The position numbers and the translations under genes were made by a program. A stretch of DNA of 64,000 nt from positions 93,144 through 157,143 of the forward strand of contig JAUSEN010000009.1 in NCBI GenBank assembly GCA_030650025.1. Direction: 5' to 3'. The notes beneath the pieces are model-generated. The model saw only the letters and a list, made by a program, of their open reading frames with translations, made no database searches and was not told where the DNA came from. Below are positions 9,744 to 29,340 of the stretch, in pieces. Source of the stretch: Candidatus Magasanikiibacteriota bacterium (GTDB lineage: Bacteria > Patescibacteriota > Patescibacteriia > Magasanikbacterales > GWA2-37-8). Position 1 is the first letter of the stretch. Each line of letters opens with the position of its first letter.

Positions 9744-9795
9744 CCATGAACCACAAAGGGTTCATGGTCCGCCTTTGGCGGAAACCTATCCGTAG

Positions 9796-9867
9796 CTCCT
9801 GGGGTAGGAATTGAACCTACAGTAACTGCATTAACAGTGCAGCGTTTTACCATTAAACTACCCAGGA
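9796..9867 (-). tRNA. tRNA-Asn (anticodon GTT)
   Basis: It folds as TCCTGGG/CCCAGGA acceptor, D-arm GTTT-AATGGTA-AAAC, anticodon arm CTGCA-CTGTTAA-TGCAG and T-arm GTAGG-TTCAATT-CCTAC. The CCA end is not encoded. Confidence 0.85.
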
Positions 9868-9871
9868 ATAA

Positions 9872-9898
9872 AAACAGTCCGCCCGAGGCGGACTGTTT
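9872..9898. terminator. 12-bp perfect hairpin aaacagtccgcc-cgag-ggcggactgttt (bidirectional terminator)
   Basis: Perfect inverted repeat immediately 5' of tRNA-Asn. Confidence 0.6.
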
Positions 9899-11177: not shown

Positions 11178-12131
11178 TTATTTCGCAATTTTTCTCTGCC
11201 TCGTTCTGTTTTTCAGGTACCGCTCAACTGCTTCTTTCGTCGTTAGCCAATCCCTACCCTCTTTATGCGCCTCTAACTTCCCTTGCCTAGCCAGCAAGTT
11301 TAAATATTTTGCAGTAAAAGGTGCAGTTTTAGATATTTCAGTTAGTGATACAAACTTTTCCTGTTTCATAGTCGCGGGAGTCAAAGTCTTAAGATAAATA
11401 TCAAGCGAGCGCTCTATCGATTGAGCGACAAATTTAATTAGAGGCTCATATTTGCCACTATCCGCTTTATCCAAAACGTCATAATATTTCTTTCGGTCAG
11501 TTTTCATAATGACTACCAGCGGATATCCGGCCTGCATTAAAAATAAATTCATCGTTAGGCGAGCGGTTCGGCCGTTGCCGTCAAAAAATGGGTGAATGTG
11601 GACTAATTTATGGTGTAACAGGGCGGTCAATTCAATTACATTCAGCTTGTTTTTTTGTGAAGCAAGCCACGTAATTAAATCCCGCATTTTTTGTGGTACT
11701 TGTAGCGCGTCGGGTGGCGTATGTTTGGCACCGCCAATAATGACGTTGGCGTTTCGGTAGCGGCCAGCCCACTCTTTATCGGTTTCTTGTAAAATAATTT
11801 GGTGCAAATTTTTTATGAGCATTTCGGAGACAGTGTGTTTTTTGTCTTTGTCTACCAAGTCGTACAAATATTCCAGCGCGGCATGGTGGTCTTTGGCCTC
11901 CAAATGGTCTTTTAAAGGTTTGCCTTTTACCGTAATACCTTCGTTAATAACCAAAAAAGTCTCTTTTAAGGTCAAAGAGTTGCCTTCAATGGCATTTGAG
12001 TTGTAGGTCATTTCAATCTGAAATTTTTCTCGAAGTTTTTGGACAGCAGATTTTGGTAGGGGACGGAGCTTATTGAGTTTAGCCAGCTTTTCTTCCAGGC
12101 GGGTTTTTATCATTGGTGAAAGGTAGGGCAT
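11178..12131 (-). CDS. fic: Fic family protein (class II, AMPylation-type motif)
   Basis: It carries the canonical HPFFDGNGRTARL motif. The N-terminal SNAIEGN matches the intramolecular inhibitory (S/T)xxxE(G/N) motif. Confidence 0.85.
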   Translation of the reverse strand: MPYLSPMIKTRLEEKLAKLNKLRPLPKSAVQKLREKFQIEMTYNSNAIEGNSLTLKETFLVINEGITVKGKPLKDHLEAKDHHAALEYLYDLVDKDKKHTVSEMLIKNLHQIILQETDKEWAGRYRNANVIIGGAKHTPPDALQVPQKMRDLITWLASQKNKLNVIELTALLHHKLVHIHPFFDGNGRTARLTMNLFLMQAGYPLVVIMKTDRKKYYDVLDKADSGKYEPLIKFVAQSIERSLDIYLKTLTPATMKQEKFVSLTEISKTAPFTAKYLNLLARQGKLEAHKEGRDWLTTKEAVERYLKNRTRQRKIAK

Positions 12132-18920: not shown

Positions 18921-21298
18921 TGATCAATTTCTCTCAAGAACTTAACCCCGAACAACTTCGGGTCGTTACCGAGGGCGACGGCCCTTGTTTAGTTTTGGCC
19001 GGGGCCGGCTCGGGCAAAACCCGTACCATCACCTATCGCGTCGCGCATCTTCTAGAACAGGGAATAAAACCTGAAGAAATTCTCCTCGTTACCTTTACCA
19101 ACAAAGCCGCGGCCGAAATGAAACGGCGGGTAGAGCAAATTACAGCGTTGTCATCCCGAGCGGAGCCGAGGGATCCCTCCGCTCGCTCGCTACACTCGCT
19201 CGGTCGGGATGACAGTGTGGTTTTACCCTGGTCCGGCACGTTCCATTCGATCGGTTATCGGCTACTACGAATGTATGGTGGATTATTAGGTTATAAAAAT
19301 AATAATGCCCTGAACCGGAGCGGAGCGACTGGTTCGGGGTTTACGGTTTTAGACAGCGACGATTCAGAGTCGCTTATTAAACTTTGTATTAAAGACGTGA
19401 AAAGCGACGAAGCTGGGAAACGTTTTCCGTCCGCGGCGGTGGTAGCCGCGGTTATTAGTTTTAGCCGCAACGCCGAAATTTCTATTCAAGAAATTTTGGC
19501 CAAACGGTTTGAACAATGGCAAGCTTTCGAAAGTGAGATTTTAACAATTAGCAATTTATATATTGGCAAGAAAATGGCCGCGAATGCCCTGGACTTTGAC
19601 GATTTGCTCACTAAGACTCTCGCCCTTGTAAAAATGCCTCAAATCAAGCAAAAATATTCCGAGCAATTTAAGTATATTTTAGTGGACGAATACCAAGATA
19701 CTAATAGAATTCAGGCCGCGCTTATCAAAGAATTATCCGGCGTTCATAATAATGTGCTAGTGGTGGGGGACGATGCCCAGAGTATTTATAGCTTTCGCGC
19801 CGCGGATATCGAGAATATTTTAGGGTTTGAAAAAGAATACCCGGGAGCCAAAATTTTTAAACTTGAAACTAATTATCGCTCCACTAAACCAATTTTAGAC
19901 GTGGCGAATTCTGTTATCGAGAATAACGTTGACCAGTATCAGAAAAATTTACGAGTAGTCATAGACCCCCTCCTAAAAAGGAGGGGGCAGGGGGAGGTGT
20001 CGCCCTTACCAGTTCTTCAACCCGCTGTTGATTCCTCTGGCGAAGCCATGTTTATCGCCAATAAAATCGAGGATCTATTAAACAAAAAAACTGCGGCGCC
20101 CGAAATCGCGGTTTTATTCCGCGCCGCGTTTCACTCGCAGGCCTTAGAAGTTGAACTGGTGAGTAGAGGCATAGATTATGACTATCGTGGCGGCGTGCGC
20201 TTTTTTGAGCGCGCCCACGTGAAAGATATTTTGTGTTATCTCCGGATTTTTAATAATTTAGCGGACACGGCCGCGTGGCTACGCGTTCTGACGCACGAAG
20301 AAGGCATCGGCCCCGCGGCGGCGGAAAAAATTATTGAAGCGGTGCGCCCGCTGTCTGTCATCCCCGCGGAAGCGGGGATCCAAAACGTTGACACGGCAGA
20401 TTCCCGCTTACGCGGGAATGACAACGTTGATCAAGTCGAATCAATCGGCCGTTCCGTTCTCACCGGCCGCGCTCTTGGGGGTTTTGAAAATTTTTTACAA
20501 ATTTGGAATGTAATGTTGGGTTGTAGGGGCGCGGTTTCCGCGCCCCAGGGCGGGGCAACCCCGCCCCTACGCCCGCGACCAAATGAACTCGTGCTTGCGA
20601 TTTTAAAATCTCCATACCAAGAATATTTAGAATCCGAATACGTAGACAGCAAAGATCGTCAGCAAGATTTGCTCCAGCTCGCCGAGTTTGCCAAGCGCTT
20701 TGACAATTTAGAAGAATTTTTAGCTTCGGCCACGCTCCAAGAATCGTTTCGGACGATCGACACCTCCCCCAGCCCCTCCTTTGCTAAGGAGGGGGGCCGC
20801 GATTCCTCTCCCCTTAGCAAAGGGGAGGGCGACCCGCCCGAATCGCTACGCGAAGCGTTGCGGGCGGGGGGTGGGGTTTCGCATCGATCTAGAATCATTC
20901 TCTCCACCATCCACCAAGCCAAGGGCCTAGAGTGGGAGGCGGTGTTTGTGATGAATCTATCCGCCGGCGCTTTCCCCAACGACCGCGCCAGCCGCGAAGA
21001 TAAAGGGTTAGAAGAAGAGCGCCGGCTTTTTTACGTGGCAGTAACGCGCGCGAAAAAATATTTGTATTTAACCTACCCCATGGCGGGCGGCAGTTTTGGC
21101 GACTTTCTCTCTGGGCCAAGTATTTTTATTAACGAAATCAAGCCCGGCCTAGTTGAGGACCATTCGCTGTTGTTAAAAGGCTCTTCGGTTTTTAATTCTG
21201 GTGAATTAACATATGTCAGCGAAGAGGATGAGCCCTTTTCTAGTAAACCAATTAAAATTAAGCCCGGTAGTTTGCTTAGAAACATCGAAGATCTTTAA
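18920..21298 (+). CDS. uvrD: UvrD/PcrA-family ATP-dependent DNA helicase with five in-frame palindromic-element insertions
   Basis: A 792 aa ORF with Walker A AGAGSGKTRTIT, motif Ia WSGTFHSIGYRLL, motif II DEYQDTN and C-terminal VAVTRAKKYLYL. The insertion positions are listed as separate repeats. Confidence 0.9.
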   Translation: MINFSQELNPEQLRVVTEGDGPCLVLAGAGSGKTRTITYRVAHLLEQGIKPEEILLVTFTNKAAAEMKRRVEQITALSSRAEPRDPSARSLHSLGRDDSVVLPWSGTFHSIGYRLLRMYGGLLGYKNNNALNRSGATGSGFTVLDSDDSESLIKLCIKDVKSDEAGKRFPSAAVVAAVISFSRNAEISIQEILAKRFEQWQAFESEILTISNLYIGKKMAANALDFDDLLTKTLALVKMPQIKQKYSEQFKYILVDEYQDTNRIQAALIKELSGVHNNVLVVGDDAQSIYSFRAADIENILGFEKEYPGAKIFKLETNYRSTKPILDVANSVIENNVDQYQKNLRVVIDPLLKRRGQGEVSPLPVLQPAVDSSGEAMFIANKIEDLLNKKTAAPEIAVLFRAAFHSQALEVELVSRGIDYDYRGGVRFFERAHVKDILCYLRIFNNLADTAAWLRVLTHEEGIGPAAAEKIIEAVRPLSVIPAEAGIQNVDTADSRLRGNDNVDQVESIGRSVLTGRALGGFENFLQIWNVMLGCRGAVSAPQGGATPPLRPRPNELVLAILKSPYQEYLESEYVDSKDRQQDLLQLAEFAKRFDNLEEFLASATLQESFRTIDTSPSPSFAKEGGRDSSPLSKGEGDPPESLREALRAGGGVSHRSRIILSTIHQAKGLEWEAVFVMNLSAGAFPNDRASREDKGLEEERRLFYVAVTRAKKYLYLTYPMAGGSFGDFLSGPSIFINEIKPGLVEDHSLLLKGSSVFNSGELTYVSEEDEPFSSKPIKIKPGSLLRNIEDL
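19149..19214. repeat. TGTCAT...ATGACA element (66 nt) in frame within uvrD between motifs I and Ia
   Basis: tgtcatcccgagcg ... cgctcggtcgggatgaca forms terminal inverted repeats. It encodes about 22 extra residues (SSRAEPRDPSARSLHSLGRDDS) relative to UvrD homologues. Confidence 0.75.
19966..20005. repeat. mini GC-rich hairpin element (ccccctcctaaaaaggaggggg plus tail) in frame within uvrD
   Basis: It resembles the first hairpin and the 3' tail of the 115-nt tri-hairpin element. Confidence 0.6.
20356..20423. repeat. TGTCAT...ATGACA element, CCCGCG subtype (copy B3), in frame within uvrD
   Basis: tgtcatccccgcggaagcggggatc ... gattcccgcttacgcgggaatgaca has the same architecture as the intergenic copies at 6925 and 42756. 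Confidence 0.8.
20523..20570. repeat. GTAGGG...CCCTAC composite palindrome in frame within uvrD
   Basis: gtaggggcgcggtttccgcgcccc-agggcggggcaaccccgcccctac shows nested hairpins. Its ends match the intergenic palindromes at 8123 and 30770. Confidence 0.7.
20764..20882. repeat. GC-rich tri-hairpin element copy C2, in frame within uvrD
   Basis: Near-identical to the copy at 16211..16332 in tgt and in the same plus-strand orientation. It is therefore translated in the forward frame here and in the reverse-complement frame in tgt. Confidence 0.85.
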
Positions 21299-21465
21299 AT
21301 TACTTATTTTAGAAACCCTAAAATAGGCAGCACGGAAGTTAAATATATTTATAAAATTTTTTTAGTTTATATACCACCTGTATCCGGGTGGTTTTTTTGT
21401 TAACGACCCCCGCCAAAGGCGGAGTGTCAGTTAACAAACCGCCTCTAGCGGATCTCTCCACTCTC

Positions 21466-21495
21466 TTGACGTTTCTGTCTATATTATGATATTAT
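21466..21495 (+). promoter_or_regulatory. promoter TTGACG-18-TATTAT upstream of GC-rich island 1
   Basis: An AT-rich native-style promoter followed by a GC-rich leader and an SD-bearing ORF. Confidence 0.45.
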
Positions 21496-21593
21496 ACTTT
21501 GTTTTTCGTGGGGCATCTTGCCTCTCGGAAGCCCGGGCGCGACCCCGGTAAAAATCGCGTAACCGCCAACGACGTCTTTTTTCGGAGGAATTC

Positions 21594-22019
21594 ATGAGCC
21601 CCATCACCCGCACCACCCTGGTGTTCGTCATCGGGCTCCTCGCGGGCCTGCCGCTCGGCCACCTCCGCCAGGAGGTTGCGGATCTCCGCCAGGTGGCGGA
21701 GCTCGAGCGCTTCGTCGCGGCCCATCACAATTTCGTCGTGGCCCATCACAATACGGTCGACACGCTTCTCGACTCGGCCATGCACTGCACGGAGAACTTA
21801 CTCGTGCTGGGGTACTCCACGGTGCATGTCTCCGACTCCTGCCAACGAGAGATCGCCGCGCAGATCCCACGGGCAACGTGGCTGGTCAGCGCGGTGGACA
21901 GCTGCGCTTCGGAGGAGGATGGCGAGGACTCGTCCTTCGACCCGCAGGTCGTCCCGAACGACGAACTGCGCCGGAACTCCACCCGCATCATCCCCATCCC
22001 GAGCCGCTGGCCGCGCTGA
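21594..22019 (+). CDS. hypothetical membrane-anchored protein (high-GC island 1)
   Basis: A 141 aa ORF with about 68% GC, a strong SD (GGAGGAATTCATG) and an N-terminal TM helix. Confidence 0.5.
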   Translation: MSPITRTTLVFVIGLLAGLPLGHLRQEVADLRQVAELERFVAAHHNFVVAHHNTVDTLLDSAMHCTENLLVLGYSTVHVSDSCQREIAAQIPRATWLVSAVDSCASEEDGEDSSFDPQVVPNDELRRNSTRIIPIPSRWPR

Positions 22020-22032
22020 GGAGGCGCACAAG

Positions 22033-22182
22033 ATGGAACTTGTTTTCGCGCTCGTCGTGCTCTACCTGCTGGGGAGGTTCGGTGCCACGATCTTCATCGG
22101 GGGGATGAAGATCGTGTTCTACATCTTCCTCGGCCTCGTGGCCCTGACCATCCTCGGCGCCATCGCCGCCCTGCCGCGCTAG
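22033..22182 (+). CDS. small hydrophobic protein, 49 aa (high-GC island 1)
   Basis: SD GAGGAGG is 7 nt upstream of the ATG. The product has two predicted TM helices. Confidence 0.45.
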   Translation: MELVFALVVLYLLGRFGATIFIGGMKIVFYIFLGLVALTILGAIAALPR

Positions 22183-22240
22183 ACTCGGAATCTAGCGCGC
22201 AAGTCGTACGGATATGCTCTGGCGGTGTTCTCAAAAACCA

Positions 22241-22297
22241 CCCGATCATGTCCCAGTCAACGCAAGTATTTGTGTTGAGTGGGATCGGGTGGTTTTT
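22241..22297 (+). terminator. hairpin plus T-tract terminator (ccacccgatc...gatcgggtgg ttttt)
   Basis: A long inverted repeat followed by TTTTT. Confidence 0.55.
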
Positions 22298-22323
22298 AAA
22301 CCCGGTTATTTAGGAGGAGAGAA

Positions 22324-22662
22324 ATGATCCGCGCGAAGTTTTTGGTCGTAGACGACGACCCGGATAACAGGGAGGTCGTCGCCAGTGTCCTTAGGGACAA
22401 GGGCTTCGAAGTAGATGAGGCGTTGTGCGCGCAGGACGCGCTCACCCTGCTCGGGCAGGTGGAGTATGACGTCCTGATCACGGACGTCGACATGCCGGGC
22501 ATGAGCGGCCTCGAGTTGGTGCGCCTGGTGCGCGCCAAGCCGGAAAGCCCCTACGCGGTTGTGATGTCCGGCCGGGCCATGGCTCAGTTGGCCGCAGCTG
22601 CCGGAGCCGAGGAGTTCTTCGAGAAGCCGTTCGACCTCGAAGAGTTTCTCGCCGTGTTCTAA
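22324..22662 (+). CDS. stand-alone response-regulator receiver domain (CheY-like), high GC
   Basis: A 112 aa ORF with the acidic pocket VVDDD, the phospho-acceptor Asp in LITDVDMPGMSG and a conserved Lys in EKPFD. SD AGGAGGAGAGAAATG. Confidence 0.8.
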   Translation: MIRAKFLVVDDDPDNREVVASVLRDKGFEVDEALCAQDALTLLGQVEYDVLITDVDMPGMSGLELVRLVRAKPESPYAVVMSGRAMAQLAAAAGAEEFFEKPFDLEEFLAVF

Positions 22663-22832
22663 CAGCCGCGTTCAGTTAGCCTCTGCCTACACACCGCGCC
22701 ACCGTGTCCCGCCAGGCGGGATCCTTCCAAAGACGCTCCTGGCGTCAACTCCGGGCCAGGAGTTATTTCTGGAAGAATTCGCGTCGGTAGCAGGTGGCCT
22801 ACCCGGCCGACGCATTTTTCCTCTAGTCACGA

Positions 22833-22900
22833 AAACCACCCCGTCGCTATCTCAATGGCAATAAGTTATTTACTGCTAGCGAGATGGGGTGGTTTTTTGT
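22833..22900 (+). terminator. terminator hairpin aaaccaccccgtcgc...gcgagatggggtggtttttt at the end of island 1
   Basis: An imperfect long stem plus a T-tract. The GGGTGGTTTTT tail motif is shared with the hairpins at 21369 and 22241. Confidence 0.6.
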
Positions 22901-22905
22901 TTCTC

Positions 22906-22934
22906 TTGACAATTTCTCCGCTTTCTAATATAAT
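22906..22934 (+). promoter_or_regulatory. perfect consensus promoter TTGACA-17-TATAAT of the str operon
   Basis: Exact hexamers 70 nt upstream of the rpsL ATG. Confidence 0.75.
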
Positions 22935-23006
22935 CTTCGCAGAACGTGAAACAGAACCAATCTCGTGGCTGAGACAATTCGTTTCAGTTTTATTTTTTTA
23001 AAAACT

Positions 23007-23441
23007 ATGCCCACAATTAGTCAGCTTATCAAACGACCCCGCAAAGCTAAACAGCGCAAAACCAAAACTCCGGCTTTACAATTTACCATCGACAACCTCC
23101 ACCGCCGCGTTACGCCTTTTAGGAAAGGGGCGGCTTTTAAGCGTGGTGTTTGTACCAAGGTGTATACCACCACTCCCAAAAAACCAAACTCCGCGCTCCG
23201 TAAAGTGGCCAAGGTCCGCCTAAGTAACGGCACCGAAGTTATCGCCTATATTCCGGGCGAAGGCCACAACCTCCAAGAGCACTCCATTGTGCTTATTCGC
23301 GGCGGCCGGGTGAAGGATTTACCAGGGGTGCGCTACCACATTGTGCGGGGCGTTTACGACGCCCAAGGAGTCGCGAATCGTCGCCGCGGCCGTAGCCTTT
23401 ACGGCAACAAGCGCCCGAAAGAGGCGAAAGCTAAGAAATAA
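23007..23441 (+). CDS. rpsL: 30S ribosomal protein S12
   Basis: [13 protein letters not shown] is the canonical S12 start. The track ORF begins 42 nt earlier. Confidence 0.95.
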
Positions 23442-23474
23442 TGCGCCTCTTCGGCGCATCCGCCGACGAGGCGG
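23441..23474. repeat. double-hairpin repeat atgcgcctcttcggcgcatccgccgacgaggcgg (copy G1)
   Basis: The sequence is 33/34 identical to the sequence after the rpsJ stop (31281..31314). Confidence 0.8.
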
Positions 23475-23508
23475 ATTTATTCTAAGCATTTGTTTGAAAA
23501 TTTATCAT

Positions 23509-23988
23509 ATGCGTGGAAAATCTCCCAAAAAACGTGTTATCTTGCCTGATCCTAAATTTGGCAGTACAAACTTGGCCAAGTTTATTAACTATGTCATGGA
23601 ACGCGGTAAAAAAACTGTGGCCCAGTCGATTGTTTACAAAGCGCTCGATATTATTAAAATTCAAAACAAAGTCGCTGATGCGGTTAAAACTTTTGATGAA
23701 GCCCTGCGCAATGTTATGCCTCAAGTAGAAGTGCGCTCGCGGCGCGTGGGCGGCGCTAATTATCAAGTGCCTTTGCCGGTGCGCGGCGAACGCCAATTTT
23801 CGCTGGCTTCGCGCTGGATTATCGGCGCGGCGCGCGCTAAAAAAGGCCTGCCCATGCACAAAAAGCTTGCCACTGTGTTATTTGAAGCCAGCCAAAACCT
23901 CGGCGATGCCATCAAAAAACGCGACGAGGTGCACCGCATGGCCGAAGCTAACAAAGCCTTCGCGCATTTTGCCCGCTTTGCTAAGTAA
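23509..23988 (+). CDS. rpsG: 30S ribosomal protein S7
   Basis: MRGKSPKKRVILPDPKF is the canonical S7 start. Confidence 0.95.
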   Translation: MRGKSPKKRVILPDPKFGSTNLAKFINYVMERGKKTVAQSIVYKALDIIKIQNKVADAVKTFDEALRNVMPQVEVRSRRVGGANYQVPLPVRGERQFSLASRWIIGAARAKKGLPMHKKLATVLFEASQNLGDAIKKRDEVHRMAEANKAFAHFARFAK

Positions 23989-24019
23989 AACACAAAATAA
24001 ATCTGTTTAAATCTTTGTT

Positions 24020-26125
24020 ATGCCTCGAGAATATTCCCTAGAAAAAACTCGTAACATCGGCATCGCGGCGCACATTGACGCCGGCAAAACCACCACCACC
24101 GAGCGTATTTTATTTTACACCGGCAAGAAGCATAAAATCGGCGAGGTGCACGAAGGCGAAGCCACCATGGACTGGATGGAACAAGAAAAAGAACGTGGCA
24201 TCACTATAACTTCCGCCGCGACCACCTGTTTTTGGAAGGGCCACCGCATTAACATTATTGACACCCCGGGCCACGTGGATTTTACCGTGGAAGTAGAAAG
24301 ATCTCTGCGCGTCCTTGATGGTGCCGTGGCTGTATTCGATGGCTCTCAAGGCGTGGAGCCCCAAAGCGAAACTGTTTGGCACCAGGCCGACAAGTATAAT
24401 GTCCCGCGCGTTTGTTTTATTAACAAGATGGACAAGCTCGGCGCGGATTTTTTTATGTCGCTTAATTCTATTTTAGAACGCTTGTCGGTAAACGCGCGCG
24501 CGGTCCAGCTCCCGATTGGCGCGGACAGTACTTTTTCTGGTCTAGTAGATTTGATTGAGAAAAAAGCCATGAAGTTTGAGGGCGACAAGGGTCAAAATAT
24601 TATTGATATCCCGATTCCTGAAGATATGTTGGCCCAAGTTGAAGAATATCGCGCTAAGCTGGTTGAGAAAGTCTCTGAAGCTAACGACGAACTGATGGGC
24701 AAATTTTTAGAAGGCAAAGAATTAACCGTGGCCGAAATTAAAGCCGGCATCCGCCAGATGGTTATTAAAGGCGAACTCTACCCAGTCTTGTGTGGGTCAG
24801 CTCTCGGTAACATTGGCGTCCAGCCCATGCTCGATTCAGTCGTAGATTTTTTGCCCGCTCCCACCGATGTCCCCGAGCTCAAAGGCATTAACCCAGATAC
24901 GGATGAACCTGCCGTGCGCCACCCCAGTGACTCCGAACCATTTTCGGCGCTCGCTTTCAAAATCGCGACCGACCCGTTTGTGGGCAAACTTATTTTCTTC
25001 CGCGTTTACTCGGGCGTAGTTTCGGCCGGTACTTATGTTTATAACGCGAGCAATGGCAAGAAAGAACGCCTCGGACGCATTGTCCGCATGCACGCCAATA
25101 ACCGCGAAGATGTCACCGAAGTTTACGCCGGGGAGATTGCCGCCGCGATTGGCCTTAAAGAGGTAAAAACCGGGGACACTTTGTGCGACGAAAACAGCCC
25201 GATTATTCTAGAGCGTCCCACTTTTGCCGAGCCGGTTATCTCGATGGCGATTGAGCCTAAGACCAAGCAAGATCAAGAAAAAATCGGCCTGGCCATGCAA
25301 AAATTGGCCGAAGAAGACCCCACCTTCCGCGTCTCGACCGACTCCGAAACTCTGCAGACCATTATTTCGGGCATGGGGGAGTTGCATTTAGATATCATCG
25401 TGGATCGCATGAAGCGCGAATTTAAAGTAGAAGCCAATGTGGGCGCGCCGCAAGTCGCTTACAAAGAAACTATCAAGAGTAGCGCCGAAGCCGAAGGCAA
25501 GTATGTCAAACAGTCGGGCGGTAAAGGCCAGTATGGCCACTGTTGGCTACGCGTGGAACCGGCCGATATGGTTGATGAGGACGTCAAGAAAGAAGTTGCC
25601 AAAAACGGCTTCCAATTTGTGGACGAAATTAAAGGTGGTGTGATTCCGCGCGAATTTATTCCCGCTATTCAAAAAGGTGTCAAAGAAAGCGTCTCGCGCG
25701 GTATTCAAGCTGGCTACCCGGTCGTGGATGTTAAAGTCACGGTCTACGACGGTTCTTACCACGAAGTTGACTCCAGCGAAATTGCTTTCAAAATGGCCAG
25801 CTCGTTTGCGTTTCAAGATGGTTGCAAAAAAGCTAAGCCCGTAATACTCGAGCCCATCATGAAGATCGAAGTTGTCACCCCGGAAAACTTTATGGGCGAT
25901 GTGATTGGTGACTTAAATAGTAAGCGCGGCCAAATTTTAGAAATGACTGATCGCGGCCAAATGAAAGTTGTAAAAGCCATGGTGCCGCTCGCCAGCATGT
26001 TTGGCTACGTTACTTCGCTCCGTTCTATGTCCCAAGGCCGGGCCTCTTCCAGCATGGAATTCGACCACTACGCCGATGTGCCGAACAACGTGGCGCAAAC
26101 AATAATTGAAGGGAAGAAGAAATAG
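24020..26125 (+). CDS. fusA: elongation factor G
   Basis: A 701 aa ORF with [20 protein letters not shown] and NKMD motifs. Confidence 0.95.
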
Positions 26126-26391
26126 AGTTGTGGATAAGAGTTTGACAGGTAACAAATTTTGTTTTACCCTATAATTTAGGTATCAAGTCGCGTTCTGTAT
26201 TGGCATAATTTATTCTCCGCCACTAAAATAATTCTCTTTAAAAAAGAGGATTATTTTTTTATTGCGCTGGCACTGCGAAGCTTTAGCGAAGCAGTGTGTA
26301 TAGCTTTTTATACAACCTTGCTTTTTTTTTGCAACTTGATAGACTTATTTGAGAGCGGCCCAGTAAGCCGCACAATGAAAGGAGGTTGCCC

Positions 26392-26529
26392 ATGCGGACC
26401 TCACCGACCACGTCCCGCAGCACCGGCTCCCCGCCCGTCACCGCCACCACCGAGCCGAAGACCGAGAAGAAGGCCCCCCCGAAGCGCGCGACGAAGACCA
26501 CCACCGGCGGCATCACCAAGGCGAACTAG
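26392..26529 (+). CDS. small Thr/Lys/Pro-rich ORF (45 aa) with strong SD, high-GC island 2
   Basis: GAAAGGAGG lies 7 nt upstream of the ATG and terminator hairpins follow. It falls below the ORF-track cutoff. Confidence 0.35.
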   Translation: MRTSPTTSRSTGSPPVTATTEPKTEKKAPPKRATKTTTGGITKAN

Positions 26530-26555
26530 CTCCCGCACGGGAGCATCACCCCACA

Positions 26556-26582
26556 CCCCCGACCGCCCAGCGCGGTCGGGGG
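26556..26582 (+). terminator. GC hairpin cccccgaccgc-ccag-cgcggtcggggg
   Basis: An 11-bp stem. Confidence 0.5.
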
Positions 26583-26676
26583 TCGTGGCTAAAATTCAAA
26601 ACCCTCAATCTCCTGTTAGCCACAAATTCTTGCGGCCAGCAGGAGGGTTTTGAAAAGAATTCTCTATAAAAACAAT

Positions 26677-26710
26677 CCCCCGAGCATAGTCGAGGGGGGT
26701 TGTTTTTTTG
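26677..26710 (+). terminator. hairpin cccccgagcatagtcgagggggg plus TTGTTTTTTTG
   Basis: A G/C-clamped stem followed by a T-run. Confidence 0.55.
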
Positions 26711-26720
26711 TTTTAAATGC

Positions 26721-26749
26721 TTGACTGTTTAATATCTGCACGTTACGAT
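26721..26749 (+). promoter_or_regulatory. promoter TTGACT-17-TACGAT upstream of the desaturase
   Basis: Correct spacing, with SD AAGGAGAG 25 nt downstream. Confidence 0.5.
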
Positions 26750-26780
26750 TAAGATGGATAAAACAACCAAGGAGAGTGCC

Positions 26781-27659
26781 ATGCCCACGACCAACGCTGG
26801 TTCCAACCCGCCCCGCCCCGCCCGTCTGCCCCGCCAGCCCGATGAGAACCTCCGTGTCGTTGGCGCCTTGCCGTTCTTCACCATCCACCTCGCCGTTATC
26901 TTCGGCGTCTTCCTGGTGGACTTCTCGTGGAAGGCGGCGATCTTGTGCGCCGTGGCGTACTACGTGCGCATGTGGGGAATCGCCGCCGGATTCCACCGAT
27001 ATTTGGCGCACCGTAGCTTCAAAACGTCTAGAGCCTTCCAGTTCTTCTTGGCCTTGCTCGGAACCATGGCCGCGCAGCGCGGCCCGCTCTGGTGGCTTGG
27101 GAAGCACCGCGAGCATCACCGCAACACGGATACGCCGCTCGATGTGCACTCGCCTTCGGTCCAGGGGTTTTGGTGGGCGCACATGTTGTGGTTCTTGTGC
27201 GCCAAGCACGACGGTACGGCGGACAAGATCAAGGCCGAATTTCAGGCTTACCCGGAAATCGGGTGGCTCGACCGGAACTATCTCATTCCGCCGCTCGCCC
27301 TCGCCCTCGCTCTCCTCGCCGTGTGGGGCCTCCCCGGCCTCTTCTGGGGGTTCTTCGCCTCCACCGTGCTCTTGTGGCACGGAACCTTTACGGTGAACTC
27401 CGTGATGCACCTCGAGAGCGTTGGCCAGCGGCGCTACCCGACACCGGATACCAGTCGCAACGTCTGGTGGCTCTGGCTCGTCACCCTCGGCGAGAATTGG
27501 CACAACAACCACCACCACTACCAGGGTGCCGAGAGCCAGGGCTTTTTCTGGTGGGAGGTGGATCTCGCCCACTACGGCCTCAAGGTCTTGTCGTGGTTCG
27601 GCTTGGTGTGGGATATCAAGAAGCCCACGCCCGCGGCCCTCGCCCCGCCGACTGCGTAG
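26781..27659 (+). CDS. membrane acyl-CoA/acyl-lipid fatty-acid desaturase (delta-9, DesA3/stearoyl-CoA desaturase family)
   Basis: Three histidine boxes are present: HRYLAHRS, HREHHR and HNNHHHY, with TM segments between them. The region is about 66% GC. An alternative start is at 26754. Confidence 0.85.
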   Translation: MPTTNAGSNPPRPARLPRQPDENLRVVGALPFFTIHLAVIFGVFLVDFSWKAAILCAVAYYVRMWGIAAGFHRYLAHRSFKTSRAFQFFLALLGTMAAQRGPLWWLGKHREHHRNTDTPLDVHSPSVQGFWWAHMLWFLCAKHDGTADKIKAEFQAYPEIGWLDRNYLIPPLALALALLAVWGLPGLFWGFFASTVLLWHGTFTVNSVMHLESVGQRRYPTPDTSRNVWWLWLVTLGENWHNNHHHYQGAESQGFFWWEVDLAHYGLKVLSWFGLVWDIKKPTPAALAPPTA

Positions 27660-27960
27660 CGGCCACCAGCGCTAATCATTATGCCCCTACCCTTGGCTTC
27701 AGCGGGCAGGAGGCTTCACAAGGTCTCCTCGCTCGTTATAACGGAAAAAATTTTTCGCTATAACGAGGGAGATCTTGGAGAAAATAAATAAGATAAATCG
27801 CCCCGACGTTATGCCGGAGCGGTTTTGTTTTTATATCGGATTTTATATCGATATCTTGACTTTTAGCAATTTTTATGATATTATCTTTTTCAACCACGTG
27901 GCAGTTTGGCTCCGGATCTACCGGCGCTAACCCGCCCCTCAACCCTCTTGAGAGGGAAAC

Positions 27961-28158
27961 ATGACGCGTTCCGATCGCCATCGCATCGAGGAGGCCCGCA
28001 CGGGCCGCGACCAGCCGCGCGCCGCGGCCACCACCCTGGGCAGTTCGCCTGACGCCGAACCGGGCGGCTCCACACCCCGTGGCACGAAGCCCGGCTTCAA
28101 GCTCGTGAAGCGCGGCACCCGCCGCACCGACCGGCGCCCGGGGGGAGGCTGCTTCTAG
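27961..28158 (+). CDS. small basic Arg-rich ORF (65 aa), high-GC island 2
   Basis: The product MTRSDRHRIEEARTGRDQPR is preceded by the hairpin ccctcttgagaggg. Coding status is uncertain. Confidence 0.3.
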   Translation: MTRSDRHRIEEARTGRDQPRAAATTLGSSPDAEPGGSTPRGTKPGFKLVKRGTRRTDRRPGGGCF

Positions 28159-28415
28159 CGGCCACCCCTGCCGCCCCTCCGCGAAGGAACCACCGGGGCG
28201 CCCAGTCATTCGACTGGGCGCCCCAAAACTAAAAATTAATTCCCTGCTTGTCTTAATTAAGATGAGCGGGGATTTTTTATTCGGGGATTACTTAGCCTGT
28301 TATTTAGTCCTTGCGTTTTTTTATAATTTGTATTAGTATGGTTCTCATTGTCGTGCCATCTTGCCCGCACTTTCGCGGGCCGATTGGCCGATTCGCCTCT
28401 GAAAGGAGGCTTCCC

Positions 28416-28736
28416 TTGAGCAAAATCATCAGGCACACCCGCGTCAGAGGGCACGTCACCAACGGCGACGTCGCCGCGGAGCTCGACCCCGCCGCGGTCG
28501 CCCGCTCCCAGCGGGCGTTCCGGGAGGAGTGCGGCGGGCCCCGTCGCCCGCGGCTCGCCCCCTCGCCCGCGCCCCAGGCGCAGGAACCGCGGCCGTCCAC
28601 CGATGCGGCCATCGCCGAGCTCGAGCGCAAGCTGGCGGCGCGCGGGATCATCACCCCCCGCGCCACCTCCGCGCCGCAGCCGGGCACGGCTCCGGGCGAG
28701 CCCCGCCCGGCCGGTTCCACGCCCGAGGCCTTTTAG
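28416..28736 (+). CDS. hypothetical Pro/Ala-rich protein with TTG start, high-GC island 2
   Basis: GAAAGGAGG lies 7 nt upstream of the TTG, the same SD context as the ORF at 26392. Confidence 0.35.
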   Translation: MSKIIRHTRVRGHVTNGDVAAELDPAAVARSQRAFREECGGPRRPRLAPSPAPQAQEPRPSTDAAIAELERKLAARGIITPRATSAPQPGTAPGEPRPAGSTPEAF

Positions 28737-28777
28737 GCCAGAGGGCGCCCCCCAGTAGGGGGGCAAGCAACATAACG

Positions 28778-28812
28778 GGGCGGCGTCTCTCGATGCACTT
28801 GAGACGCCGCCC
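28778..28812 (+). terminator. 12-bp perfect hairpin gggcggcgtctc-N11-gagacgccgccc
   Basis: It shares the GAGACGCC core with the hairpin at 29344..29372. Confidence 0.55.
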
Positions 28813-28935: not shown

Positions 28936-29340
28936 ATGAACAATTCCCATTTACAAAAAGTTCTGCGTTTAATAAGGAAGACTCGCGACCGAGTGGTGGT
29001 TTTAGACCAAGAGAGTGATGATGTTCTCGTAATACTTCGTCTTGAAGATTACGAAGATTTAGTAGATGCTACTAAGACAGTAAGTAATACCGGCAGTAAT
29101 GCCGAGAGTAATAATAATCAAGAATCAATTTTGCCTTCTCCGGCTGACGAAGAGCAATTTACCTCGCCGCCAGGCGGGGCGCCTCTCCCTTCACAAAATA
29201 TTCACAGCTTCCCTAATGCTAAACAAAAATTAGATTTTAGCAGTGACTGGCAGGAGCAAAATGCCTCGCATTTCGAGCCTCTGGACAGCCTCCCAGAGGA
29301 CGAGGTTGAAGAAAAATTTTACCCCGAACCGGTGGAATAA
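28936..29340 (+). CDS. hypothetical protein with Phd/YefM-like N-terminal domain and acidic disordered tail
   Basis: RVVVLDQESDDVLVILRLEDYEDLVDAT resembles the YefM antitoxin fold. No toxin partner is adjacent. The track ORF starts at the TTG at 28930. Confidence 0.4.
   Translation: MNNSHLQKVLRLIRKTRDRVVVLDQESDDVLVILRLEDYEDLVDATKTVSNTGSNAESNNNQESILPSPADEEQFTSPPGGAPLPSQNIHSFPNAKQKLDFSSDWQEQNASHFEPLDSLPEDEVEEKFYPEPVE

Follow-up and report, generated by a model that had tools for sequence, protein, structure and literature searches.

Hotspots of gene transfer that are flanked by core genes, and that are kept by homologous recombination without mobility genes, are an established concept in comparative bacterial genomics. 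Two other described systems come close to the locus reported here, namely cassette arrays of the integron type and single-domain response regulators. Magasanikbacteria form an order of the Patescibacteria class ABY1 and are common in groundwater (PMC12577380), and for groundwater Patescibacteria PMC12455944 describes genomic islands with phylogenetically ambiguous, novel sequences, and names rpsL and tuf among the most often transferred genes. Here we describe a 1.4-kb GC-rich stretch (the island) with three small genes, orf141, pep49 and REC, that lies between uvrD and the promoter of rpsL in a 64-kb stretch of contig JAUSEN010000009.1 (the window; all coordinates given without a genome name refer to it). 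According to the NCBI record of the island proteins, the organism is a Ca. Magasanikbacterium (Patescibacteria, class ABY1).

Next to the str operon, the stretch from uvrD to the rpsL promoter probably serves as a long-lived accessory slot that is driven by recombination. It would hold cassettes in a foreign dialect, with the orphan CheY-like receiver REC as a member kept for long and with membrane ORFs that change faster. The slot appears to vary across the lineage and to have a twin between fusA and a phd-like gene. The units in the slots would share one dialect, in which third codon positions have a GC content (GC3) of 0.7-1.0, two-fold codons end in G or C, and a GGAGG Shine-Dalgarno (SD) site precedes the gene, in a surrounding genome that is SD-less with a GC3 near 0.5, and they seem to be framed by native-style sigma-70 promoters and long hairpin terminators. 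Their open reading frames (ORFs) would have been acquired horizontally from SD-using, high-GC bacteria, and homologous recombination, with its anchors in the highly conserved genes on either side, would bring cassettes in, remove them or exchange them with no integrase involved. In the window, unit 1 would consist of a promoter, a 98-nt leader, orf141 and pep49, ending at the hairpin T2, and unit 2 would be REC, which may have lost its own promoter and would be produced by read-through of T2 only. Judged from its family, REC would be a CheY-like regulator that can be phosphorylated, and it most likely acts as a switch or as a sink for phosphate from a kinase whose gene lies elsewhere.

Composition, codon usage and SD sites of the island

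The original prediction for this DNA was a GC-rich island of three ORFs between uvrD and the str promoter, with a GC content of about 68%. In 300-nt windows, the GC content was 0.36-0.38 at 21050-21499, just after uvrD, 0.62-0.65 over 21500-22250 and 0.59-0.64 over 22250-22850, and it returned to 0.42 at the rpsL promoter. The jump itself was therefore confirmed, but the figure was slightly too high, as the three ORFs together (21594-22662) have a GC content of 0.623, compared to 0.485 for the whole window. The GC3 of the island ORFs lay 5.8-7.2 standard deviations above the mean of 48 native ORFs (0.50, standard deviation 0.058, maximum 0.65). Each island ORF had also been credited with a strong SD site that native genes mostly lack, and indeed GGAGG was found 5, 8 and 6 nt ahead of the ATGs of orf141, pep49 and REC, respectively, and the SD core was present in none of the 48 native genes versus all 7 genes of the island and the twin island together (Fisher p = 5e-9). 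When gene calls were disregarded, intergenic combinations of SD site, start codon and ORF were found in both islands, and the other matches were nearly all intragenic or shadow ORFs.

Codon usage separated the same genes. Native genes prefer A or T in two-fold boxes (AAA 80%, TTT 80%, ATT 61%, CAA 63%), whereas in the genes of the two islands taken together AAG (92%), TTC (82%), ATC (97%) and CAG (95%) predominate, and the share of G/C-ending two-fold codons was 0.82 in island genes versus 0.37 in native ones. The possibility that island usage is a "hyper-optimal" form of native usage was ruled out, since native translation genes are not intermediate (AAA 72%, TTT 74%) and retain AAA, GAA, TTT and ATT. 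Native codon usage is itself split, with four-fold families favouring G/C (GC content at four-fold sites 0.66) and two-fold families favouring A/T. The codon usage of the island thus differs from the native one in kind, and not in degree alone. The atypical composition and codon usage by which recently acquired genomic islands are recognised were both found, and the data support a compositionally foreign segment with a distinct codon and SD dialect.

Sharp GC steps in a metagenome-assembled genome (MAG) might also stem from a chimeric assembly that joins DNA of a candidate phyla radiation (CPR) bacterium to that of a high-GC organism. The probability of this is negligible, because an independent assembly, the Logan contig SRR13727527_359122 (3333 bp), is 100% identical to 20848-24180 and spans both borders. 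In addition, at least 5 other MAGs or contigs from other samples have this mosaic at the corresponding position, and the cassette promoters, SD sites and terminators are in register with the flanks. The island is a correctly assembled, real chromosomal segment.

Related genomes, age and origin of the cassettes

Longer relatives were fetched with RpsL matches as anchors, and are referred to below by numbers preceded by an L (L091 is GCA_009694865.1). Every relative with uvrD-rpsL synteny carried different SD-led, GC-rich cassettes in this slot and in the slot between fusA and tuf. In L091, the order is uvrD, orf166, orf124, a T2-like hairpin, a promoter with leader, REC and rpsL. L093 has two unrelated ORFs in the uvrD-rpsL slot (GC3 0.92 and 0.88) and an SD-led ORF between fusA and tuf (GC3 0.61), and L095 has a 131-aa and a 32-aa ORF upstream of rpsL (GC3 0.78 and 0.88) and a 52-aa ORF in the fusA-tuf slot (GC3 0.92). 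In L097 and L098, orf119 (L097 only) and orf97 lie upstream of rpsL, and L097 has a 62-aa ORF between fusA and tuf (GC3 0.75). L094 contains a 66-aa SD-led ORF on the minus strand upstream of rpsL (GC3 0.54) and a 45-codon SD-led ORF in the fusA-tuf slot (GC3 1.00). The latter (L094 7502-7639) shows the dialect in the most extreme form observed: every one of its 45 codons has G or C as the last base, in a genome with a GC content of 45%. Cassette GC3 ranged from 0.61 to 1.0, and in the loci of four relatives the SD core preceded 8 of 8 high-GC3 genes versus 9 of 55 others (p = 6e-6). No cassettes were found in L099, a more distant Magasanikbacterium without uvrD-rpsL synteny, which has GC-richer native genes without SD sites. 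High-GC Magasanikbacteria were rejected as donors, as the lack of SD sites before the genes of L099 (GC3 ~0.7) would leave those of the cassettes unexplained.

The turnover at the slot is best seen in L097 and L098, which have an identical RpsL protein. Identity at the DNA level is 84% across the last part of uvrD and 97.8% from the next cassette through rpsL, and exactly at this switch L097 has an extra promoterless unit of ~450 nt (SD, orf119, hairpin), where L098 has ~20 unrelated bases. We read this switch as a recent inter-lineage recombination breakpoint together with a single-cassette polymorphism at the slot. The locus thus combines the same flanking genes, different cargo and recombination at the border, as in a hotspot, and no integrase was seen among the called genes of the relatives' flanks. 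Such turnover fits the frequent transfer of rpsL and tuf in the published survey cited above (PMC12455944).

REC is old. Among 5.8 billion proteins, its only close homologues were three metagenomic proteins, about 80, 71 and 66% identical. With the copy in L091 included, the identities to REC of the window were 81, 71, 66 and 61%, and these follow the same order as those of RpsL (91, 89%) and RpsG (80, 73%). The 71% copy (L003) lies directly upstream of rpsL, and the 61% copy (L091) lies between uvrD and rpsL in a genome whose UvrD and RpsL are 55% and 89% identical to those of the window. All REC copies have a GC3 of 0.75-0.85, compared to 0.43-0.62 for their neighbours. Between the window and L091, synonymous divergence (dS) was 1.3 for REC and 1.6-2.7 for the flanking genes, and the identity at four-fold sites was 0.48 for REC (0.42 expected at saturation) and 0.36 for UvrD (0.30 expected). 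REC, and probably orf141, were therefore already in the slot in the common ancestor with the genomes that share 55% UvrD identity, which makes the island ancestral and no recent insertion.

This bears directly on the idea, also put forward in the original prediction, that the island was recently inserted into an epibiotic CPR cell from its high-GC actinobacterial host, which we now regard as very unlikely. A high GC3, this codon dialect and strong SD sites are typical of Actinobacteria, as of many other high-GC phyla, and parts of the island could be young, since nothing in the relatives corresponds to pep49 or to the C-terminal part of orf141; pep49 is the only island gene unique to this genome. 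Against this, genomes whose UvrD is 55% identical to that of the window have REC, and probably orf141, in the corresponding slot, which largely refutes the idea for REC. The closest matches of REC are moreover CPR homologues of similar GC content, an outcome that had been named beforehand as speaking against a foreign origin. Outside the lineage, REC matches among the 5.8 billion proteins were at most 46% identical and came from mixed phyla. In a scan of 185,579 species with one genome each, the best relatives among the matches listed were 38-45% identical and belonged, in no particular order, to Bdellovibrionaceae, Limnocylindria, Pirellulales, Myxococcota, Acidobacteriota, Actinomycetota and others, with Actinomycetota no closer than Bdellovibrionaceae or Pirellulales. 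Finally, the organism is a Magasanikbacterium, and no evidence was found for an actinobacterial host or on its host at all. An exact scan of JGI metagenome contigs with a REC-specific 22-mer gave 6 loci, which were discarded as chance matches in high-GC DNA without a REC orthologue. In viral contigs, REC matched only generic receivers (40% identity), and orf141 had no match. The foreign dialect is thus supported, and a recent insertion from an actinobacterial host is not.

Several results weigh against a foreign source for the cassettes of the slot, or against parts of the scheme set out above. The GC step falls at the ORF boundaries and not at fragment ends, and the promoters and terminators are AT-rich and native-style, which is not what a whole imported fragment would be expected to look like. 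No donor was found for any cassette (for the genome scan, among the matches listed), so that of the predicted acquisition from a high-GC donor the foreign composition, codons and SD sites stand, and these carry the case for a foreign origin by themselves. When third-position changes were polarised by parsimony on four terminal branches, the 49 changes in REC were divided into 32 strong-to-weak and 17 weak-to-strong, corresponding to an equilibrium GC3 of ~0.72, compared to 59 and 49 changes and an equilibrium GC3 of 0.54 for rpsL and rpsG of the same genomes. The probability that REC follows the native process was 0.01, or 0.024 with synonymous changes only, and an equilibrium of ~0.72 instead of 0.54 suggests that something holds REC GC-rich. 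The roles given to promoters, terminators and read-through are predictions, and no histidine kinase (HisKA/HATPase_c) was present among the 20 larger proteins of the 64-kb window scanned against Pfam.

A different explanation, unlikely but to be taken seriously, is that the genes are long-resident, either native or anciently acquired, and their GC-rich, SD-led character is actively maintained. Two routes could lead to this: selection for structured, GC-rich mRNAs that need an SD site, as a separate translation class, or GC-biased gene conversion at the hotspot. The GC3 of REC, which stayed at 0.75-0.85 despite four-fold sites near saturation versus L091, its equilibrium GC3, the GC step at the ORF boundaries, the GC3 of 1.00 of the 45-codon ORF in L094, and the recombination breakpoint at the slot all agree with it. 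However, the polarised changes number only 49 and still give a net loss of GC, and cassette GC3 runs from 0.61 to 1.0, with the shared genes spanning much of that range, which influx followed by slow amelioration fits equally well. Biased conversion would leave the SD sites unexplained, and no GC enrichment is seen in rpsL and uvrD, the genes at the borders of the hotspot. The data are suggestive, in a small sample, of REC shedding GC slowly toward a plateau well above that of the genome. A further-reaching and quite unlikely proposal is that Magasanikbacteria keep a selectively maintained second-dialect gene class, with SD-dependent initiation and G/C-ending codons, in recombination-prone slots near the str operon. 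If this were true, translation of the second dialect could be controlled separately, through the availability of the anti-SD sequence, mRNA structure or the wobble-modification state of tRNAs, and GC-richness would be a maintained functional property instead of a fading mark of transfer.

Layout of the slot, its genes and other features of the window

The features of the slot, the twin island and the related loci are listed in the table. The hairpins with a common tail that had been proposed to bound the island, and the perfect str promoter behind them, were indeed found. The exact sequence GGGTGGTTTTT, common to the island hairpins, has 4 copies in the window, all within the island, and 12 matches versus 2.3 expected when one mismatch is allowed.

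Table. Features of the uvrD-rpsL slot, of the twin island and of related loci
Feature	Position	Strand	Description
T1, uvrD terminator hairpin	21373..21399 (stem-loop 21373-21392)	+	ACCACCTG/tatc/CGGGTGGT then T-run; -12 kcal/mol, z -3.4; left edge of the slot
Promoter-like site, unit 1	21466..21495	+	TTGACG-18-TATTAT with TG extension; 10/12 match; putative function
orf141 leader, 98 nt	21496..21593	+	GC 0.55; mini-hairpin 21539-21558 GCGA/ccccggtaaaaa/TCGC; GGAGG 21584-21588
orf141	21594..22019	+	GC 0.66, GC3 0.88; N-terminal hydrophobic helix
pep49	22033..22182	+	49 aa; GC 0.62, GC3 0.92; own GAGGAGG
T2, long two-tier hairpin between unit 1 and REC	22233..22297	.	AAAAACCACCCGAT...ATCGGGTGGTTTTT; -41.3 kcal/mol, z -9.9; inverted repeat I19
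REC	22324..22662	+	112 aa; GC 0.63, GC3 0.84; AGGAGG 6 nt upstream
REC 3' stem-loop	22781..22819	+	GCGTCGG...CCGACGC then ATTTTT; within a ~170-nt 3' stretch highly conserved with L002
T3, long hairpin, right edge of the island	22831..22897	.	AAAACCACCCC...GGGGTGGTTTTTT; -30.3 kcal/mol, z -5.3
rpsL (str operon) promoter, native flank	22906..22934	+	TTGACA-17-TATAAT; 12/12 match
pep45	26392-26529		GC3 0.98; twin island 2
Acyl-CoA (delta-9-type) desaturase homologue	26781-27659		Pfam FA_desaturase; best plasmid matches 45-49% identical; twin island 2
orf65	27961-28158		Twin island 2
orf106	28416-28736		Twin island 2
phd-like gene	28936-29340		
phd-like gene, L093	14247-14681		
phd-like gene, L094	9007-9453		
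phd-like gene, L095	14485-14934		
phd-like gene, L097	13839-14351		
One-cassette difference, L097/L098	L097 8540-9010 vs L098 920-946		

At the position that matches the promoter-like site of unit 1, L091 has TTGACA. The mini-hairpin in the leader of L091 has a loop identical to that of the orf141 leader and a stem that is altered on both sides (GCGT/ACGC); the overall fold of the orf141 leader was not better than that of shuffled sequences. Downstream, T2 looks like a bidirectional intrinsic terminator; in L091 and L002 its outer stem is kept, and the inner stem differs yet pairs at the matching place. T2 ends 26 nt 5' of the REC start, and in this genome there is no promoter in between, so that REC would be expressible only via read-through of T2; REC of L002 and L091 is preceded at this point by a promoter and a leader of ~150-300 nt. 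The hairpin 3' of REC is present in all five orthologous loci, with changes on both sides in 2 of 14 pairs, and the surrounding stretch is probably non-coding because indels versus L002 break the frame. The 5' arm and loop of T3 are identical in L002, and TTGACA of the rpsL promoter is kept in 7 relatives. A scan of 21250-23050 against Rfam gave nothing at or near any gathering score.

That small ORFs are each followed by an imperfect, bulged hairpin of 65-70 nt, that the hairpins of the island have outer stems in common, and that L097 and L098 differ by a single cassette could also point to an integron-like or other site-specific cassette array with the long hairpins as attC-like sites. We hold this to be highly improbable. 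The window proteins scanned included neither an integrase nor a transposase, the called flank genes of the relatives included no integrase, most cassettes have their own promoters, the hairpins have the A-run/T-run geometry of terminators without GTTRRRY/RYYYAAC cores on reading by eye, and the L097/L098 junctions are not clean. No tRNA target lies near the island, the nearest tRNAs being at 9796 and 48165, and no flanking direct repeats were found beyond the hairpin stems.

The island had been described as a lone receiver without kinase or output domain beside two small membrane proteins, which holds for the receiver and pep49 and, marginally, for orf141. REC matched Pfam PF00072 (Response_reg) over residues 7-110 of 112 with E 1e-24 and 87.4 bits (cut-off 30.2), its only Pfam match, and there is no output domain, as the receiver domain fills the ORF. 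Among solved structures, the best match is the single-domain response regulator 3A0U/3A0R, followed by CheY. D10, D11, D54, S82 and K101 are invariant across the four closest orthologues of REC; in 3A0U the three aspartates align to Asp, K101 to Lys, and S82 to Thr, an accepted alternative. By CheY numbering, we take these residues to be the acidic pocket, the phospho-acceptor Asp54, Ser82 and Lys101. REC does not qualify as a CheY equivalog, scoring 52 bits with NF007901 versus a cut-off of 189, and its closest NCBIfam scores are far under every equivalog cut-off. The neighbours of REC are orf141, pep49 and rpsL, and thus do not include the adjacent cognate kinase of a two-component pair. None of the window proteins scanned is encoded by a che gene, and PADLOC gave no defence-system match beyond weak receiver-domain overlaps. 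The ratio of nonsynonymous to synonymous divergence (dN/dS) of 0.16-0.36 among the orthologues is clearly indicative of purifying selection. Most likely, a kinase whose gene lies elsewhere phosphorylates REC, which then either binds a partner protein, as a switch that depends on phosphorylation, or drains phosphate.

The other two genes look like a small membrane pair from one transcript; since pep49 starts 13 nt past orf141, they are probably co-transcribed. The product of orf141 is a probable single-pass membrane protein with one N-terminal segment, whose hydropathy of 1.66 at residue 4 is barely over the cut-off of 1.6, and it contains a 7-aa tandem repeat, FVAAHHN/FVVAHHN (21-nt repeat D18). 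An exhaustive HMMER scan of 1.84 billion representatives gave no homologue, and the single-sequence AlphaFold2 model was helical only, with a mean confidence (pLDDT) of 60, too weak for a fold search. In L091, orf124 is probably orthologous to orf141: it matches in position and orientation, the protein match is weak and N-terminal (44% over 32 aa, E 0.002), the membrane-helix coding stretches align at nucleotide level, both share the motif GLP(L/I)G(H/Y)(L/V)RQ at the end of the helix, and both leaders have the mini-hairpin described above. The GC3 of the two genes is 0.88-0.90. The C-terminal parts cannot be aligned; this part of orf141 evolves fast, which, we speculate, would suit a surface-exposed role. 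The pep49 product has two strongly hydrophobic segments (hydropathy up to 2.6) and had no match in Pfam, NCBIfam, PADLOC or the DNA of the relatives.

Twin island 2 (26290-28800) is bordered on one side by fusA (end at 26125) and on the other by the phd-like gene that precedes tuf, and contains four SD-led GC-rich units (26392-28736), most with a promoter-like site and a hairpin. In a CPR bacterium, a gene for an O2-dependent lipid desaturase is unusual. Small ORFs just past fusA in four genomes could not be aligned and were dropped as one family. The phd-like gene is found immediately 5' of tuf in every relative examined. It is low in GC, and its product has an acidic tail and, at the N-terminus, a region that resembles Phd/YefM antitoxins (Pfam E 1e-4, below the cut-off); the gene in the window has a perfect TTGACA-16-TATAAT promoter, and no toxin partner was seen beside it.

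On the other side of the slot, uvrD contains GC-rich palindromic repeats inserted in frame at 20355-20425, 20523-20570 and 20765-20880, with the translations IPAEAGIQ...SRLRGNDN, GAVSAPQGGATPPLRP and SFAKEGG...SPLSKGEG; in L091 and L093, the UvrD orthologue is shorter by 70-110 aa. The window contains 6 mini-hairpins of the form CCGCC-N3-GGCGG, versus 0.2 expected (9769-9781, 9879-9891, 21410-21422, 30950, 49247 and 51895); two of them flank the tRNA at 9796-9867, and the 13-mer at 21410 is also present in the rpsL leader of L095. The rpsL leader of the window (22935-23006) has a hairpin, TCGTGGCTGA...TCAGT, followed by a T-run just 5' of the start codon. It is conserved with paired stem changes in L003, L091, L093, L094, L095 and L097, looks like an attenuator or a ribosomal-protein binding site, and had no Rfam match. 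Elsewhere, an ORF of at least 1923 codons (~58200-64000, + strand, GC 53-57%) with an N-terminal signal-like segment runs off the end of the window and probably encodes a surface protein; this giant ORF explains the raised GC there, and a third island at 58.3-64 kb was ruled out. A Fic/DOC-family protein with a C-terminal HTH is encoded at 11178-12131 (- strand), and a Fic gene lies near rpsL in the distant L099 too.

Significance and relation to known systems

What had appeared to be a one-off, host-derived island is a reproducible feature of a lineage, with two slots flanking rpsL-rpsG-fusA. This calls for caution with programs that call islands or horizontal gene transfer in CPR genomes, and may help to explain why rpsL and tuf are frequently called "transferred". 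The locus also lends itself to the question of whether amelioration always becomes complete or some genes keep a composition of their own, and REC belongs to the small number of signalling proteins that these reduced genomes have conserved.

Compared to the known systems, REC resembles the single-domain response regulators (CheY, the 116-aa regulator 3A0U/3A0R of Thermotoga maritima, and the DivK/CpdR class) in being a 112-aa receiver only with the catalytic set present, but it differs from them in that scans of the 64-kb window showed no che genes or kinase, and in being a GC-rich, SD-led outlier conserved beside rpsL. With integron arrays, and attC clusters without integrase, the slots share tandem small ORFs that each have an imperfect hairpin, but their units have own promoters and terminator-type hairpins, and neither core sites were recognised nor an integrase seen. 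SD-led, GC-rich mini-cassettes around rpsL, fusA and tuf, and their lineage-wide persistence, are not described for the groundwater islands in the parts of PMC12455944 used here. As in core-gene hotspots, the slots have the same flanks, different accessory content, no integrase or transposase, and a breakpoint at the slot; unlike those, their units measure 0.2-1 kb, are single-gene transcription units, share one non-native dialect, and lie in slots that flank the str operon.

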